Shown here piece after piece: positions 3,190 to 12,245 of a stretch of DNA of 43,639 nt. Made by a program: the position numbers and the translations under genes. The stretch lies in IMG/VR virus record IMGVR_UViG_2617270952_000006; one strand, written 5' to 3'. The stretch is from a virus. Taxonomy: Duplodnaviria; Heunggongvirae; Uroviricota; Caudoviricetes. Below the pieces are notes generated by a model. The model was not told the DNA's origin, searched no databases, and was given only the letters and a program-made list of their open reading frames with translations. Positions within the stretch are counted from its first letter, which is position 1. Every line of letters begins with the position of its first letter.

Positions 3190-4347
3190 ATGCTCACCGT
3201 TAAGCAGATTGAAGCAGCAAAGCCGAAAGAAAAACCATACCGCCTACTCGATGGTAATGGCCTGTACCTTTATGTCCCTGTGTCAGGGAAAAAGGTATGG
3301 CAGCTTCGCTACAAGATTGACGGTAAGGAGAAAATCCTGACCGTAGGAAAATATCCGCTAATGACTTTGCAGGAGGCAAGAGATAAAGCATGGACCGCGA
3401 GGAAAGACATCTCGGTTGGCATCGATCCGGTAAAAGCGAAAAAGGCTTCGTCTAACAACAATTCCTTTAGTGCAATTTACAAGGAATGGTACGAACACAA
3501 GAAGCAAGTCTGGTCAGTAGGGTATGCGACTGAACTTGCAAAAATGTTTGATGACGACATTTTACCCATCATCGGCGGTCTTGAGATTCAGGATATTGAG
3601 CCGATGCAACTGCTGGAAGTAATCCGCAGATTTGAAGATCGCGGTGCAATGGAGCGAGCCAACAAAGCCCGCAGAAGATGCGGCGAGGTTTTCCGTTACG
3701 CTATTGTCACTGGTAGGGCTAAATATAACCCGGCACCTGACCTTGCAGACGCCATGAAAGGATACCGCAAGAAGAACTTCCCGTTTCTTCCTGCAGACCA
3801 GATCCCTGCATTCAACAAAGCACTGGCAACATTTTCAGGAAGCATCGTATCGCTCATTGCGACCAAAGTTTTACGCTACACAGCCCTAAGAACGAAAGAG
3901 CTTCGTTCCATGCAATGGAAGAACGTCGATTTTGAAAACAGGATTATCACTATCGACGCCAGTGTGATGAAGGGCCGCAAGATTCATGTTGTTCCTATGT
4001 CAGACCAGGTGGTTGAACTTCTCACTACGCTAAGCTCCATCACTAAACCAGTATCAGAGTTTGTTTTTGCCGGGCGCAACGATAAGAAGAAGCCAATCTG
4101 CGAGAACGCGGTATTGCTTGTTATCAAACAAATCGGCTATGAGGGTCTGGAAAGCGGTCACGGATTCAGGCATGAATTCAGCACAATTATGAACGAGCAC
4201 GAATGGCCTGCTGACGCTATTGAAGTGCAACTGGCACATGCCAACGGCGGATCTGTGCGTGGAATTTACAACCATGCTCAGTATCTCGATAAGCGCAGAG
4301 AAATGATGCAGTGGTGGGCGGACTGGCTTGATGAAAAGGGGGAGTGA
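3190..4347 (+). CDS. intS: Tyrosine integrase, P4 family (IntS-like)
   Basis: 385-aa product from ATG 3190 (ORF track extends to 3154 from GTG); N-terminal arm-binding domain and C-terminal catalytic region (..HGFRHEF..LAHANG..RGIYNHAQY); immediately downstream of argW as in E. coli K-12 KplE1/CPS-53. Confidence 0.9.
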   Translation: MLTVKQIEAAKPKEKPYRLLDGNGLYLYVPVSGKKVWQLRYKIDGKEKILTVGKYPLMTLQEARDKAWTARKDISVGIDPVKAKKASSNNNSFSAIYKEWYEHKKQVWSVGYATELAKMFDDDILPIIGGLEIQDIEPMQLLEVIRRFEDRGAMERANKARRRCGEVFRYAIVTGRAKYNPAPDLADAMKGYRKKNFPFLPADQIPAFNKALATFSGSIVSLIATKVLRYTALRTKELRSMQWKNVDFENRIITIDASVMKGRKIHVVPMSDQVVELLTTLSSITKPVSEFVFAGRNDKKKPICENAVLLVIKQIGYEGLESGHGFRHEFSTIMNEHEWPADAIEVQLAHANGGSVRGIYNHAQYLDKRREMMQWWADWLDEKGE

Positions 4348-7075: not shown

Positions 7076-8011
7076 TCAGTAGTTATGTACTGAAGGAGGT
7101 AATTCTTTATTCTTAAGTCTCATCCATGCGGAAAGATTCGTTGGTCCGTCTGGCTCATTAATATCAACATCTCGTGTGCGATTGATTAAAACGTCTCTCG
7201 CCATTCCGATAACATACGAGAACTCATGACCGTAGTCGTAGCATCTGCCTGAATAGTTCGATTGAATTTGTTTTAGCGCCGGATACAGTTCGCGGAATAA
7301 TGCCTGTGAGCGGTTGGCATAATCCCATAACCATACAAGGCTGTTTACTTCTTTTGCAGAAAGCTCGTTGGTTTTCTTCTCTTGTTTGCCAATGAACTCA
7401 CCTTCAAGTGGAACTCGAGCTGCAAGTGATAGTGCTTCGGTAAACTGCTCCTCACTGATTTCTTTGTATGAACATCCAAAATGGGATTTCAGTGACGACC
7501 ACATGGTGATCATCGCCTTAGCCTGTTTTTCCTTTGGCAGAGACTGACCGCGACTCATGACGAGTTGTTTAATGGCTTCCTGCTGTTCAGTGGTGATTTT
7601 ACCCGGCAACGCCTTTTTAGCTTTGCGCGGGTTAACTACATGGCCTTTAGTCCAGTAGTCATGCAGCACGCTAAAGCATTCCTCCTGGTACTGAATCAGT
7701 TTATCGCGGATGTCAGCACGAACTTTCTCAGGGTTGATGCTGAACAGCCATCCATTTAACTTCTTCAAAGGAAGGCAGAGTAGCTTACGAAGCTTTCCAT
7801 CAGCAGCAACCATATTCATATGAATACATTTGAACTTATCTAGTTGTTTCATAAGTTTTTGTTGCTGAGTACCCCAGCTCATTCCGAGGTTTTCAACGAT
7901 TGGCTTCATCGCAACATATGCAACTCCGGCAGCCATGGCGGTGATAATTTGCTGACCGTTGAATGGTACGTAAGAGGTGTTCACTGCTTCTAAAATTGCT
8001 ATACTATTCAT
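7076..8011 (-). CDS. ant: Antirepressor Ant (P22 immI-type)
   Basis: Large ORF immediately downstream of arc on the same strand; start taken at ATG 8011 ([17 protein letters not shown]..); ORF track extends to a GTG at 8077 that overlaps the upstream ORF. Confidence 0.7.
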
Positions 8012-8073
8012 GTTGGTTTTTCTCCACGGATTTACTGACAACCGAAGCCCTGACTGTTCCCGCAGTTGGGGCT

Positions 8074-8256
8074 TCACTGTTTTATGTTCACATCTAACAT
8101 TGTTTTTCTAGAATTTAACTCTTTCCCCATCGCTTCAACGCAAAGAGATACACAACTACTACAGATAAATATCTCTGCTTTAGCGCGAATCAACATTGCA
8201 CATTCATGCTGAGGCTTTCCGCAGAAGGAGCACTTAAAGCCATCTTCTTTATTCAT
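8074..8256 (-). CDS. 60-aa protein with ClpX-type C4 zinc-ribbon (ZBD-like) motif
   Basis: [43 protein letters not shown].. parallels the ClpX N-terminal zinc-binding domain (CSFCGK.QHE..LI......IC..CV.LC); start ATG overlaps arc stop (ATGA); preceded by GGGGGTGG RBS. Confidence 0.6.
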
Positions 8257-8405
8257 ATCGCCACCCCCTCTTTCTTCAGGCTGTCTATCAGGCGCTTGAT
8301 AACCTCTGAGTTAAACGACCTGCACTCTTCCTTTGCCCTGCTACCGATAGCATCCTTTAACGACTGCGGCATCCTTACCAAAATCTTACTTATTTCTTTC
8401 TCCAT
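8253..8405 (-). CDS. arc: Arc-like ribbon-helix-helix repressor
   Basis: 50-aa product [50 protein letters not shown]; RHH signature (..RSFNSE..) as in P22 Arc; GGAGGG RBS upstream of ATG 8405. Confidence 0.7.
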   Translation of the reverse strand: MEKEISKILVRMPQSLKDAIGSRAKEECRSFNSEVIKRLIDSLKKEGVAI

Positions 8406-8519
8406 GTTACCCTCCACACAAACAACTCTTTTCGAATACAAAAGATAGCAAAGTGAGTATATCTAGTCAAAATTTTTTTGCATACACTTTGATATCAAAT
8501 TGAATACCAAAGGTGTGTT
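8406..8519. promoter_or_regulatory. Divergent mnt/arc control region (Pant/Pmnt analog) containing a perfect 12-bp palindrome TTTGATATCAAA at 8488-8499
   Basis: Intergenic region between divergently oriented RHH repressor genes; palindrome seen directly; A+T-rich. Confidence 0.4.
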
Positions 8520-8768
8520 ATGGCAAAGGGTGTGTCAATTTCTCCAACTACGGTAAGAATCCCTGAATCTTTACGCGAGGCTCTTGCTGTTAGAGCATCA
8601 AAAAATGGTCGCTCTGTTAACTCCGAGATCGTCATGATTTTGCAAGCCGCGATTGATGAAGATAGGTCGCCAAAGTCAGTTGAGTCATTTGCTCAGCAAG
8701 AAGCTGACAAATTCAAAGAGGCGCTGCTGGAGACGCTGAAAACCATGTATGGTAAGGATGATAAATAA
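8520..8768 (+). CDS. mnt: Mnt-like ribbon-helix-helix repressor
   Basis: 82-aa product with N-terminal RHH (..RIPESLREALAVRASKNGRSVNSEIV..) and C-terminal helical region, divergent from arc as in P22 immI. Confidence 0.75.
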   Translation: MAKGVSISPTTVRIPESLREALAVRASKNGRSVNSEIVMILQAAIDEDRSPKSVESFAQQEADKFKEALLETLKTMYGKDDK

Positions 8769-9304
8769 TGCTGCACACAATTCATTTCTTATGCCCCGTT
8801 AACACCGCCACTGTTGGGCAACTTCAGAACCACTGTCTCACCGCATTATCTCAAGGCGCAACTGAATTAAATATCCATATATCAAGTCAGGGAGGGGAAA
8901 CTGCCGCTGGTTTTACTGCGTATAACTTTCTTAAGTCACTCCCTGTTACCGTTAGAACTCACAACATAAGCAATGTTGAATCCATAGCTAATATCGTTTT
9001 CCTGGCTGGCTCAGAACGTTTCGCAAACCCATTATCAAGATTCCTGTTACATCCTCTATTATGGGGCTTTGCCTCCCCAGCCGCCGACCATGCCAGACTG
9101 AGAGAGTACGGGAAATGCCTCGATAACGATCTTGATCGCTTCGTTGAGACGTTCAATATCGACATCGGAACCCATATTAGGTGGGCATCCCTGATAGCAG
9201 ACTCGACCATTTTGGATGCTAACAAGGCTCTTGAGCATGGCATAATTAATTCCATAAAAACTGCAAGGCTGGCATCCAATCAGGCAAACTGGTGGGTTGT
9301 TTGA
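8768..9304 (+). CDS. ClpP-family (peptidase S14-like) serine peptidase homolog
   Basis: By-eye alignment to E. coli ClpP: IHISSQGGETAAG vs INSPGGVITAG; NVESIANIVFLAGSERFANPLSRFLLHPL vs [31 protein letters not shown] (candidate Ser and His aligned); start ATG overlaps mnt stop (TAATG). Confidence 0.65.
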   Translation: MLHTIHFLCPVNTATVGQLQNHCLTALSQGATELNIHISSQGGETAAGFTAYNFLKSLPVTVRTHNISNVESIANIVFLAGSERFANPLSRFLLHPLLWGFASPAADHARLREYGKCLDNDLDRFVETFNIDIGTHIRWASLIADSTILDANKALEHGIINSIKTARLASNQANWWVV

Positions 9305-9360: not shown

Positions 9361-9780
9361 TTAATCTTGCTTCGTGGAAGGTATAAGAGATGCATTTGCC
9401 TCTTTTGGCTTCAATGTATACATCCCACCATTAAATGGATCAACAGCAAGCCAACCAATTAACCCACCAAACACAAGGTTTCCACCAATATACCAACCAT
9501 TAGCATTGGCTTTGATTGGCAGGGTAACTGGTTCGTACCCATCCTTCTCCATAGTGATCTGGTAGCTCTTTTTGCCAAAATAGCTACCATCTGACTTGGC
9601 GAGTGTTACACCTTGTGGAGTCTTACCTTGCGCAACAATCACACCCGATTCATCTTTTACCTTAAAGCTCGCGCCAGAAGGATTGCTGTTCACTTGCACA
9701 AGTTGCGTTTCATCACCAACAATAGTTGCGCACCCAGATAACATGATAACGCCAGCAACGACGCTAATAATCCTCTTCAT
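9361..9780 (-). CDS. Lipoprotein with PEGA-like domain and C-terminal glycine-zipper hydrophobic segment
   Basis: Signal peptide with lipobox (MKRIISVVAGVIMLSGC); PEGA-like stretch (..VQVNSNPSGASFKV..GKTPQGVTL..DGYEP..); C-terminal ..WYIGGNLVFGGLIGWLAV..; A+T-rich. Confidence 0.55.
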   Translation of the reverse strand: MKRIISVVAGVIMLSGCATIVGDETQLVQVNSNPSGASFKVKDESGVIVAQGKTPQGVTLAKSDGSYFGKKSYQITMEKDGYEPVTLPIKANANGWYIGGNLVFGGLIGWLAVDPFNGGMYTLKPKEANASLIPSTKQD

Positions 9781-9897
9781 ATCAATTTCCATATTTAAAA
9801 AACCGGAAACATCCTAATGACAAAACATTCAAATGTGAAGTAGGCAAAAGATGTTTACTTTTTTCATGGTATCCTGCTCAAAACTAAGGAGGTTGGT

Positions 9898-10125
9898 GTG
9901 AAGCGATGGTTCCTCATAATTACTGTTTTCGCGATCATTTACACTATTTTCCCTGCATTAAAAGCACCAATGCAAATAATTTCACTAGCAATAATTTCGA
10001 TTGGTGCTTTCATTGCAGTAGCCGTACTTGTGTTTAAGGTTTTAAAGTTTTTAGTTTGGCTATCAAAAGATGATGGATGCAAAGTTCATCAAGAAAAAGA
10101 AGGCAAAATAACCAAAGTTGACTAA
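9898..10125 (+). CDS. Small predicted 2-TM membrane protein
   Basis: 75-aa product with two hydrophobic helices; GTG start 7 nt after AAGGAGG RBS. Confidence 0.45.
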   Translation: MKRWFLIITVFAIIYTIFPALKAPMQIISLAIISIGAFIAVAVLVFKVLKFLVWLSKDDGCKVHQEKEGKITKVD

Positions 10126-12245
10126 CTGTCACTAGCGAGCCATGTAATAATCCCCGTGCGGGCAATGGTTTTTGCTTCATCTGTTGATAAGGTTTTCTCC
10201 CATCTCTTAAATGCCCCAGATTGCATCAGTTTCCTTTCTATTGCGCGTCTCACTTCTGCTCTGTCTACTGGTGCGTTTTGCAGGCGAAATAGCATTGATT
10301 TAAACTCAGGAGAAGATAGCAGAGCATCAGCAGCCTTTATCCTGCTTGTTTTCCCTGACATCAATGCAGACGTTATCACCCCTGTTGCACCTACACCAGG
10401 GAGACCAGATAAGCTTGTAATACCTTCCGCCGCAGCAGCTTTTGAGGCTATTCCATAAATTTTTGCGAGACTACCCTTTTCTTTCAGAAAGTTATTAACT
10501 TGCTGATCCACAAGACTACTAGCATACTGCTTACCAGTATTGAGTCTATTCATAGCCTTAGCTGCTTGATAAATCGTATCAAGGCGCTTTGATGCATCTG
10601 TGCCAATAGCATCACGGAGAGCCTTCATATTGGCCCCATTGCGTGACATTCCGTTATACCATTTTACAAATCCATCAACTCCTAATTGCTGACCAGGTGA
10701 TTTGGCATAGCTGGTAAATGCTTTATTCATTGAGGTGAGCGCAACTTCCTGCCGCATATCCTTTGGAATCGACTTCATTAATTGCCTAAAGTCGCCACCG
10801 TTTCCTTTTGCCATATTAACAACAGCACTTTCAACTTTTGGAATTGCTGATTGCTGAAGTTTTCTACCCAAGACGGTTACAGCATCATCTTCAATGGATT
10901 TTCGTTTTTTTACCAACTCCTTACCAAGCGTCCATAATTCCCCTGCGCCATATTTTTCTGCGACAGCCTGTTGGTCATCTGTTATGGCTGCATATAACTT
11001 TTTAAGAACACCTGTTTCTTCATCCTTGAATGGACCAGAGCCTTTGCCAATAGCTTGTCCAACCTGCTTTCTAGCGAGATCTAAACGCCCATACGTTGGC
11101 AAGGTGTTTGGATCAAGTCGGTTCAATGTCCGCTTCATTATTGGAGATAATTCATCAATTCCACCTATGTCATCAGCAAAATCCTCTAAAAAATTCAATG
11201 TATTAGTTGCCTCAATCCGGTCTCTTACAGGAACCTTTTCGGCAATTTTGTTGTAGATGTTATCTGACTGATTTTGTAATGATGAAATGGTTTTATCAAA
11301 ATTATCTGCAAGCCTGTCAGAAACCAGTTGCTTATCAAGGCTTCCCCCAAATGAAGTTATCATTTCATCAGCTTTTCTTCCTAATTCAGTAATAAAACGC
11401 TTATGCGCCTCACTAATCTCTGTTCCAGGGAGACTTGCCACTGCATTATCAAGAGCCCTGACAGCAGGATTATTAGAGATCATGCCTGGAGTGGCATAAT
11501 TTTCCAGTTCTAGCTCACGAATAGCATTTATCGCGTTAAAATCAGGATTAACTTCATCGGCGAAATCTTGAATAGCTCGTTGCCCGCCGATAAATTTATT
11601 GTCCATTGCGCCAGCAGCTTTCTTTAACGTTGCTTTAGATGATTTACTACCCATCCCTACGGATGAGCGATAAATATCTCCGGCACTATTTTTAATTTTT
11701 CCTGCAATCTTCCCAAGCGCTGGACCAACAATCTCGGCTACAGGGCCAGCCACAGCGCCAATAGCAGCGCCGGAAGCAACATCGCTATTTGTTCCATTGG
11801 CTACAATAGCCCCTTCTCCAGCACCAAGCCCTGCGGCGGCAGCCAGCCTTGCCGCCCCTTTCGGAACCTGAGAAATAATCCCACCACCACTAACAAATGG
11901 CGCTGCTTGTCCAACGAACTCACCAACATCTTGTGCGGTTGATGGTTTTGCCGCTAACTTCTGCTGTAGAGACTGAATTGCGGCTTGCTCTTCTGGTGTC
12001 ATGTCCTGAAACAGGCCAACACCTTTACCAACATCCATCAATCCACTGAGAACGCCATACATAAAACGGTCGAAGCCGTTAGCATTATTAACAACATTTT
12101 CCTGTCTGGAATTTTCCTCTAGTGAAACCAAAGGAGATTGCTGCTGTTCTGGTTGTGCATCAAGCACAAAGCCATCAGGAAGCTGTGAGTTATCAGGCTG
12201 TTCATCCAGAACAAACCCCTCTGGTAAACCTACATTGGTTGCCAT
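10122..12245 (-). CDS. Ejection (E) protein, P22 gp16-like by position and size
   Basis: 707-aa ORF at the distal end of the virion gene block, following gp20-like and gp7-like genes in P22 order. Confidence 0.7.

Follow-up and report, generated by a model that had tools for sequence, protein, structure and literature searches.

The closest described counterpart of the locus considered here is the immI region of phage P22. In P22 (L006; loci collected for comparison are cited by number), read in the same orientation as our sequence, the order is arc, GGTCCACCGTGGACC, the Pant -10, ATAGTAGAGTGCTTCTATCAT, the Pant -35, 22 bp and then mnt. Of these elements, GGTCCACCGTGGACC (2720-2734) is Omnt, a single copy that lies towards arc and immediately 3' of the start of Pant, and Oarc fills the Pant spacer. 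P22 Arc represses both Pant and the mnt promoter.

Mnt is a known repressor of Pant (PMC2629481), and its C-terminal domain stabilises tetramers (PMC3325190). Ribbon-helix-helix (RHH) proteins generally bind as at least two dimers on regularly spaced adjacent sites, with a two-stranded ribbon directed into the major groove (PMC3413123), and the multi-site RHH operators are bound cooperatively by at least two dimers (PMC3413123, PMC3325190). The immI region and the variable 'ant moron' of P22-like phages have been described (PMC2629481, PMC8022706).

The window analysed here is a stretch of 43,639 nucleotides from IMG/VR virus record IMGVR_UViG_2617270952_000006, and it is about 98% identical over the part discussed to Escherichia phage phiv205-1 (Lederbergvirus). 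It contains a complete P22-type immI module (ant, sar RNA, an arc-like and a mnt-like gene) in a phiv205-1-like Lederbergvirus. The initial annotation had placed a palindrome in the divergent promoter region of an immI-type switch, and this setting is upheld: two RHH genes of the Arc family diverge from each other, arc is followed by an antirepressor gene of the P22 type, a sar RNA lies opposite the ant start, and there is a Pant-like promoter. The genes of the module and its surroundings are the following.

7076-8011, minus strand: ant antirepressor gene (P22_AR_N, E=2e-44; P22_AR_C, E=7e-29), with 85% DNA identity to P22 ant
8012-8078, plus strand: sar antisense RNA (Rfam RF00262), full length, 87.7 bits against a gathering score of 43
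8074-8256, minus strand: ORF of 60 aa resembling the ClpX C4 zinc finger (PF06689, E=4e-11), between arc and sar/ant
8253-8405, minus strand: arc-like gene, 50 aa, strand SKILVRMP (Pfam Arc PF03869, E=1e-12)
8520-8768, plus strand: mnt-like gene, 82 aa, with an RHH domain and, at the C-terminus, a helix that has its homologue in the tetramerisation region of Mnt (Pfam Arc PF03869, E=1e-10)
8768-9304, plus strand: ClpP-family protease-like gene, 178 aa (PF00574, E=5e-12; PHROG 94, 'head maturation protease'), with an ATG that overlaps the stop codon of mnt
9361-9792, minus strand: gene for a putative lipoprotein, 143 aa (weak PEGA-domain match, PHROG 6823)
9898-10125, plus strand: gene for a membrane-like protein, 75 aa (PHROG 7294)

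The start of ant was set at the ATG (8011) of MNSIAIL..., which adjoins sar; the longest ORF extends to 8077. The mnt-like protein matches PDB 1mnt (E=2e-6 over residues 12-73), with V12-R13-I14-P15 aligned with F9-R10-M11-P12 of Mnt, and the PDB matches of the arc-like protein are Arc (1arr, 1par, 1baz) and AmrZ. Although an extra ORF has been inserted between arc and ant, the module thus keeps the sar antisense layer known from P22 immI. Both Clp-related genes that flank the switch are absent from P22, and a ClpP-like gene also lies 3' of another Mnt type in L157; products of the flanking genes may affect the proteolytic turnover of the repressor or antirepressor. The lipoprotein and membrane-like genes complete the 'ant moron' between the ClpP-like gene and a 707-aa ORF (10122-12245, minus strand), and it is possible that the 143-aa and 75-aa proteins are prophage-expressed cargo, for example with exclusion functions.

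The palindrome is TTTGATATCAAA at 8488-8499, within the 114-bp intergenic interval (8406-8519) that separates the divergent arc-like and mnt-like ORFs. It is perfect over its 12 bp, as had been claimed, and the distance to the mnt start, put at about 20 bp, measures 20 nt from the end of the palindrome to the ATG at 8520. The window holds seven perfect 12-bp palindromes where first-order Markov simulations give 12.6 +/- 3.7, so palindromy is weak evidence on its own, and for at least one such palindrome in a 114-bp stretch of the same AT-rich composition P = 0.044. The palindrome is real and well placed, and taken alone it exceeds chance only marginally. The longest perfect palindrome of the window, TATTCATATGAATA (14 bp, 7813-7826), lies inside the ant coding sequence.

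We therefore looked to the elements around the palindrome, which are given below together with the promoter features of the interval.

8442-8470, minus strand: Pant-like sigma-70 promoter, with -35 TTGACT (8470..8465), a 17-bp spacer (8448-8464) and a TG-extended -10 TATCTT (8447..8442)
8444-8455, plus strand: box A, GATAGCAAAGTG, whose core CAAAGTG (8449-8455, centre 8452) lies in the Pant-like spacer, the box overlapping the -10
8471-8483: shared A/T tract (AATTTTT) followed by TTGCAT (8478-8483), a candidate Pmnt -35 back to back with the Pant -35
8485-8502: extended dyad CACTTTGATATCAAATTG, 18 bp, symmetric at 16/18 positions, the proposed Mnt-like operator
8485-8491: core B, CACTTTG, centre 8488
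8496-8502: core C, CAAATTG, centre 8499
8508-8515, plus strand: degenerate core D, CAAAGGTG, centre about 8511.5, overlapping the mnt Shine-Dalgarno

The palindrome is the inner part of a longer repeated arrangement. From A to D the cores are spaced 36, 11 and 12.5 bp centre to centre. The left arm of the dyad reads GATATCAAAGTG on the minus strand and the right arm reads GATATCAAATTG; box A and the left arm (8485-8496) form an inverted repeat with 11/12 positions matching, and an inverted 12-mer pair with at most one mismatch arises in about 0.02-0.025 of simulated 114-mers. A degenerate 12-mer, GATAKCAAAKTG, with the 7-bp core CAAAGTG, has three exact matches in the 43.6 kb, all within 8444-8502, a count that is descriptive and not an independent test because the pattern was built from these very sites. 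Two inverted, overlapping copies make up the 18-bp dyad, and the remaining one is between the -10 and -35 of the Pant-like promoter. There is also a fourth copy, GAATACCAAAGGTG, which is degenerate and overlaps the Shine-Dalgarno of mnt, where GAATACCAAAG (8502-8512) is a direct repeat of GAATACAAAAG (8434-8444). Core D is the weakest of the boxes, and the ribosome-binding site (RBS) alone could explain it.

The Pant-like site was the only promoter-like call in a scan of 8200-8800. It is preceded by an A-tract, and its start is predicted near 8435, with transcription directed toward arc, sar and ant. When aligned by eye, 21/30 positions of 8441-8470 are identical to the P22 Pant/Oarc segment, which argues that Pant is homologous, and in the record of phage epsilon34 the equivalent 29 bp are annotated 'Pmnt/Pant' and 'arcO'. 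The sequence AGTCAAA is kept in all clades with the shared promoter core, and every one of the clades collected has the longer AGTCAAA(A/G)TTTTTTTG. On the mnt side, the -35-like hexamer is always TTGnnT across clades (TTGCAT, TTGAAT, TTGATT, TTGCCT, TTGACT or TTGTCT). The sole candidate for a Pmnt -10 is TTGAAT at 8500-8505, with a 16-bp spacer. A consistent Pmnt -10 was sought across clades and none was found in the L041- or L042-types, nor did the scan of 8200-8800 call Pmnt; with low confidence, Pmnt may be TTGCAT-N16-TTGAAT, which fits window-type and L002-type sequences only. A P22-style Pmnt that fully overlaps Pant was rejected, as the homologous hexamers (TACAAA/TATCTA) score 6/12 and the final T is missing.

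Close relatives were used to ask which part of the site is kept. The set comprised 34 near-identical IMG/VR contigs whose Arc and Mnt proteins are those of the window. Of the 34, 20 have the perfect palindrome, and the remaining 14 (41%) have TTTGCTATCAAA, the result of an A to C change at 8492; perfect palindromy is thus incidental. The change converts box B into GATAGCAAAGTG, which is exactly box A of the window. Box A in turn reads GATATC... in 4/34 contigs. The only common polymorphisms within the boxes are at 8448 in box A and 8492 in box B, both at box position 5 and both G/T, as though one recognised unit, in which a single position is free, had been copied into A and B. Position 2 of box C is also altered by the A to C change in the same 14/34 contigs, and this suggests that box C is less constrained than A and B and that the site may act as a single box B.

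One explanation for these patterns is that the palindrome has no binding function of its own: chance in AT-rich sequence, or a duplication, would have produced it in a promoter-rich interval, and the region would be kept by promoter, UP-element and RBS constraints. The shortage of 12-bp palindromes relative to expectation and the breakage of the perfect form in relatives favour this explanation, as do the frequency of GATATC in the window (22 observed, 12 expected) and the lack of a GATATC-centred dyad at this place in the L042-type clades described below. We nevertheless consider it unlikely. The flanking cores, rather than the centre, are conserved, and they change in concert with three other boxes while the spacing is kept. 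Promoter spacers are normally unconstrained, yet among the 34 contigs only 1/18 columns varies in the dyad (8485-8502), compared with 7/78 in 8442-8519 and 8/36 in 8406-8441, the most variable part of the intergenic region. In addition, every exact copy of the box is confined to 8406-8519.

Several other readings of the palindrome were dropped. Palindromy itself was given up as the main argument, given the below-expectation number of 12-mers and the lack of conservation of the perfect form. Avoidance of or selection for EcoRV sites was set aside, the count of GATATC being uninformative, and so was a terminator or hairpin, since the palindrome lacks a loop and nothing resembling a terminator occurs in 8200-8800.

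More distant relatives were recovered with the conserved core AGTCAAA(A/G)TTTTTTTGnnTACAC, which comprises the Pant -35, the shared A/T tract and TTGnnT, and with the window type they make four clades. A scan of IMG/VR Arc proteins and the promoter-core DNA scan of IMG/VR returned the same clades; a GTDB genome scan gave one relevant match, in Tatumella, and a metagenome scan gave 26 relevant loci with two new variants. A tblastn search of phage records found no further strand types close to that of the window. The clades are characterised as follows.

Window type, phiv205-1 and close relatives: CAAAGTG-type boxes; Mnt strand SPTTVRIP; Arc strand KILVRMP
L002 type (about 70% DNA identity), vB_EcoP-611R6 and O157:H7 prophages: CACCGTG, CACTGTG, CAATGTG and CACGGTG at the four positions of the window's boxes, spaced 36, 11 and 12 bp; Mnt strand APYSVRMP; Arc strand RILVRMP
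L041 type, L041: GTGATATCAC where the window has the palindrome, and close to arc a perfect TGTGATATCACA; Mnt strand SPYGVRMP; Arc strand DCIVRMS
L042 type, L042, L043 and Tatumella: four ACACnGTGT boxes; Mnt strand RDISP(L/M)GIR(I/V)P; Arc strand RDIAPLGIR(I/L)P

In place of the dyad, the diverged clades have CACTGTGATATCAATGTG or CACTGTGATATCAC, and at the position of core D there is CACGGTG in the L002 type and, in the L042 type, CACAGTG with a distinct AGGAG downstream of it. The spacer of Pant beside the -10 always holds a core. Within each genome all boxes change together and their positions are kept, as is expected of operators for one changing DNA-binding specificity. On this comparative evidence, the conserved unit is the GATAKCAAAKTG box and not the perfect palindrome. 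The suggestion in the initial annotation of a pair of operator half-sites therefore survives in part: two inverted half-sites are backed by the comparisons, and the region is a candidate repressor binding site, but the informative parts lie mostly outside the central GATATC, in the cores CACTTTG and CAAATTG 11 bp apart, and the site is one of several related boxes, the others being in the Pant spacer and, in degenerate form, at the mnt RBS.

The initial annotation had left the choice between Mnt and Arc undecided, and here the diverged clades are informative. Across about four clades, with the loci linked, the box sequence co-varies with the N-terminal residues of Mnt. Between the window and the L002 type the Arc strand is nearly the same and the boxes differ, as do the Mnt strand and arm (GVSISPTT in the window, VRDIAPYS in L002; residues 1-15 are MAKGVSISPTTVRIP and MTKVRDIAPYSVRMP, respectively). 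Loss of 'RD' from the Mnt arm (VRDI to GVSI) goes with loss of a C/G from the cores (CAC to CAA). Conversely, L041 and L002 have different Arc strands, similar Mnt strands and similar boxes. Two variants, L025 from IMG/VR and L254 from a metagenome, carry an Arc K7R change that makes the strand SRILVRMP, identical to that of L002, and their Mnt strand (SPTTVRIP) and boxes stay of the window type. In these comparisons the boxes follow Mnt and not Arc. The covariation draws on about four independent clades and the two informative variants, and linkage or co-inheritance could explain part of it.

Several side observations bear on the mosaic structure of mnt. There is a joint inside the gene (8520-8768; L053-L086 and L248), with an N-terminal DNA-binding half that varies by clade and a C-terminal segment, approximately FAQQEADKFKEALLETLKTMYGKDEK, common to many otherwise unrelated Mnt types. 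L248 is a hybrid of the window and L002 types within mnt, its recombination joint lying downstream of the DNA-binding half. One or two extra mnt-like RHH genes occur in tandem immediately 3' of mnt in L004 (2967-3227), L051 (1440-1691) and L052 (1440-1697 and 1721-1975), and three Arc-family genes are annotated in L004 by RefSeq. The tandem genes in these related prophages suggest stacked repressor specificities.

An alternative is that the Arc-like protein, by itself or alongside the Mnt-like protein, binds the palindrome and the other boxes, so that a single repressor made from Pant shuts off Pant (through box A) and the mnt promoter (through the palindrome) in lytic growth. P22 Arc has such dual action, and box A is at the position of the -10-proximal half of P22 Oarc, with 9/11 positions identical by eye (ATAGCAAAGTG and ATAGTAGAGTG), a likeness that is partly the shared -10 hexamer and lacks the P22 'TAGA' element. 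In the L042/L043 clade Arc and Mnt share nearly one N-terminal strand, and the near identity of RDIAPLGIRIP in Arc and RDISPLGIRIP in Mnt beside one type of box (L042, L043, L198) points to shared operators in this family; in the L042 type the two proteins probably do share them. The strand of the Arc-like protein, K-x-L-x-R, also resembles that of AmrZ, whose Lys and Arg read guanines (PMC3325190), and the cores contain the G/C positions needed. Against this, Arc proteins with identical DNA-facing residues (R7, L9, R11) are found beside boxes of the CAAAGTG type in L025 and L254 and of the CACnGTG type in L002 and L258, and the different Arc strand of L041 is accompanied by L002-like boxes. 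The sequence thus does not track the recognition residues at the Arc N-terminus, and we think binding by Arc, alone or with Mnt, rather improbable.

A separate Arc-like operator was considered at 8457-8466, where the segment (G/C)TATATC(T/A)AG is common to the window and L002 and differs in L041, but this candidate is undercut by L204 (OKVO01000245.1, a metagenome contig with its core near 3534 on the strand that was read). In L204 an L002-like Arc (SRIVVRMP) occurs together with a Mnt strand and an intergenic region of the L041 type, which makes it the only recombinant of Arc and Mnt types that was seen. Its mnt frame breaks after about 31 codons, by decay or assembly error.

The reading we favour, and hold to be probable by a modest degree, is that the Mnt-like RHH repressor encoded 20 nt downstream binds a two-fold symmetric operator of 18 bp (8485-8502), at the centre of which lies the palindrome. 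The symmetry of the dyad, the repetition of its arms, their conservation and the concerted change across clades, which follows the Mnt N-terminus, are observed directly in the sequences. Since RHH proteins bind as multiple dimers, 8485-8502 can be read as the site of a tetramer, and the centres of its cores, 8488 and 8499, are about one helical turn apart. The binder, the tetramer geometry, the position of Pmnt and the sign of regulation are inferred. The Mnt-like tetramer would consist of two RHH dimers joined by the C-terminal helical domain, and it would place one beta-ribbon per core in successive major grooves, on CACTTTG and CAAATTG, on one face of the DNA. The central ATAT would then serve as a spacer, and the palindrome would comprise this spacer and the inner part of both half-sites.

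Occupancy of box A, which sits in the spacer of the predicted promoter, would turn off Pant and hence arc, sar and ant in the lysogen, and the constant presence of a core in the Pant spacer fits the role of Mnt as repressor of Pant. Occupancy of the operator at the palindrome would throttle mnt, most likely as negative autoregulation. The dyad lies between the conserved TTGCAT and the mnt start and RBS, which makes control of mnt itself the most likely function, and its distance from the predicted start of Pant (roughly -50 to -68) rules out direct occlusion of that promoter. The autoregulatory step is weakly founded because there is no consistent Pmnt -10 across clades. Moreover, one protein acting on both Pant and the mnt promoter would, by analogy with P22, be the behaviour of Arc and not of Mnt. 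Bridging of boxes A and B by one tetramer was rejected as a simple model, as the centres are 36 bp apart (about 3.4 turns) and out of phase.

A broader possibility, which we put forward tentatively, is that the clade has a rebuilt immI, in which Pant and Pmnt stand back to back, share one A/T tract and are flanked on either side by arrays of cores at about 11-bp spacing for a single RHH specificity, maybe common to Mnt and Arc.

It has also to be asked whether the dyad serves a host factor, or acts as a roadblock that modulates minus-strand read-through of the late operon into arc, ant and the tailspike gene, and not on initiation at Pant or Pmnt. Relatives do carry arms resembling TGTGA..TCACA, but these are 1-2 bp apart instead of the 6 bp of CRP sites, and the version in the window has no such arms; a CRP-like site was rejected on these grounds. 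The concerted change with a phage-encoded repressor points to a phage protein, and a roadblock would need repressor binding in any case, which makes it an added function and not a true alternative. We consider this explanation very unlikely.

The palindrome is thus most likely an ordinary regulatory element with a new sequence specificity in the control region of a P22-type antirepressor, and it appears to represent an uncharacterised operator specificity in a well-known system. If our reading is correct, it provides the operator sequence for an uncharacterised Mnt-type repressor that is common in E. coli prophages, the arc-mnt region having matches in 544 of 5,426 complete genomes, including APEC/ExPEC strains, with a sister form in O157:H7. 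It would also mean that immI can be wired otherwise than in P22, the Pant -35 having copies of the operator to either side of it. Matched variants of protein and operator could be of use in studies of RHH specificity or as orthogonal repressor-operator pairs, and if the idea of a rebuilt immI holds, the series CACnGTG, GTGATATCAC, ACACnGTGT and CAAAGTG, together with the small changes in the Mnt arm and strand, would be a ready-made set of specificity swaps for the RHH recognition code. No new kind of biology is opened by these results; their value is modest and lies in a natural series of RHH proteins and operators and in an example of immI rewiring relative to P22.

The operators can be compared with those of P22. 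The resemblance to Mnt and Omnt is one of kind: a repressor of the same family with a C-terminal tetramerisation region, encoded divergently from arc-ant and expected to repress Pant in the lysogen, and an operator that is two-fold symmetric with half-sites about one helical turn apart. The dyad of the window and P22 Omnt have no sequence similarity, however, and the DNA-facing residues are P9/T11/R13 in the window as opposed to H6/N8/R10 in Mnt. The dyad is upstream of the Pant -35, towards mnt, and Omnt is on the arc side; the dyad is accompanied by related boxes, one in the spacer of Pant and one at the RBS of mnt, in contrast to the one copy of Omnt. The intergenic region is 114 bp instead of 90 bp, the approximately 24 extra bp being the A/T tract, TTGCAT and the dyad. 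At the place of Omnt in P22, in the Pant start region between Pant and arc, the L002 and L041 types do have a palindrome (the L002 type carries TTGTGAATCACAA there), and the window has only a weak CTTTT-N7-AAAAG / TTCGAA feature within 8406-8441, polymorphic at 8432 and 8433, which was rejected as a P22-like Omnt.

The P22 Oarc (ATAGTAGAGTGCTTCTATCAT, between the Pant -10 and -35, and 'arcO' in epsilon34) has its positional counterpart in box A, and the arc-like gene is homologous to P22 arc. The palindrome itself (8488-8499) is outside the Pant spacer (8448-8464), is fully symmetric where Oarc is only partly so, and has its half-sites reversed, with the GATA heads at the centre and not at the ends and without TAGA elements.

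In architecture the boxes resemble the multi-site operators of ParG, CopG, MetJ, omega and AmrZ, which are likewise made of short cores at fixed spacing, in direct or inverted orientation, with AT-rich spacers. Those proteins control plasmid partition or replication or chromosomal regulons, whereas here the array flanks a back-to-back pair of phage promoters in an antirepressor switch, and its cores are about 11 bp apart compared with 8 bp in met boxes.
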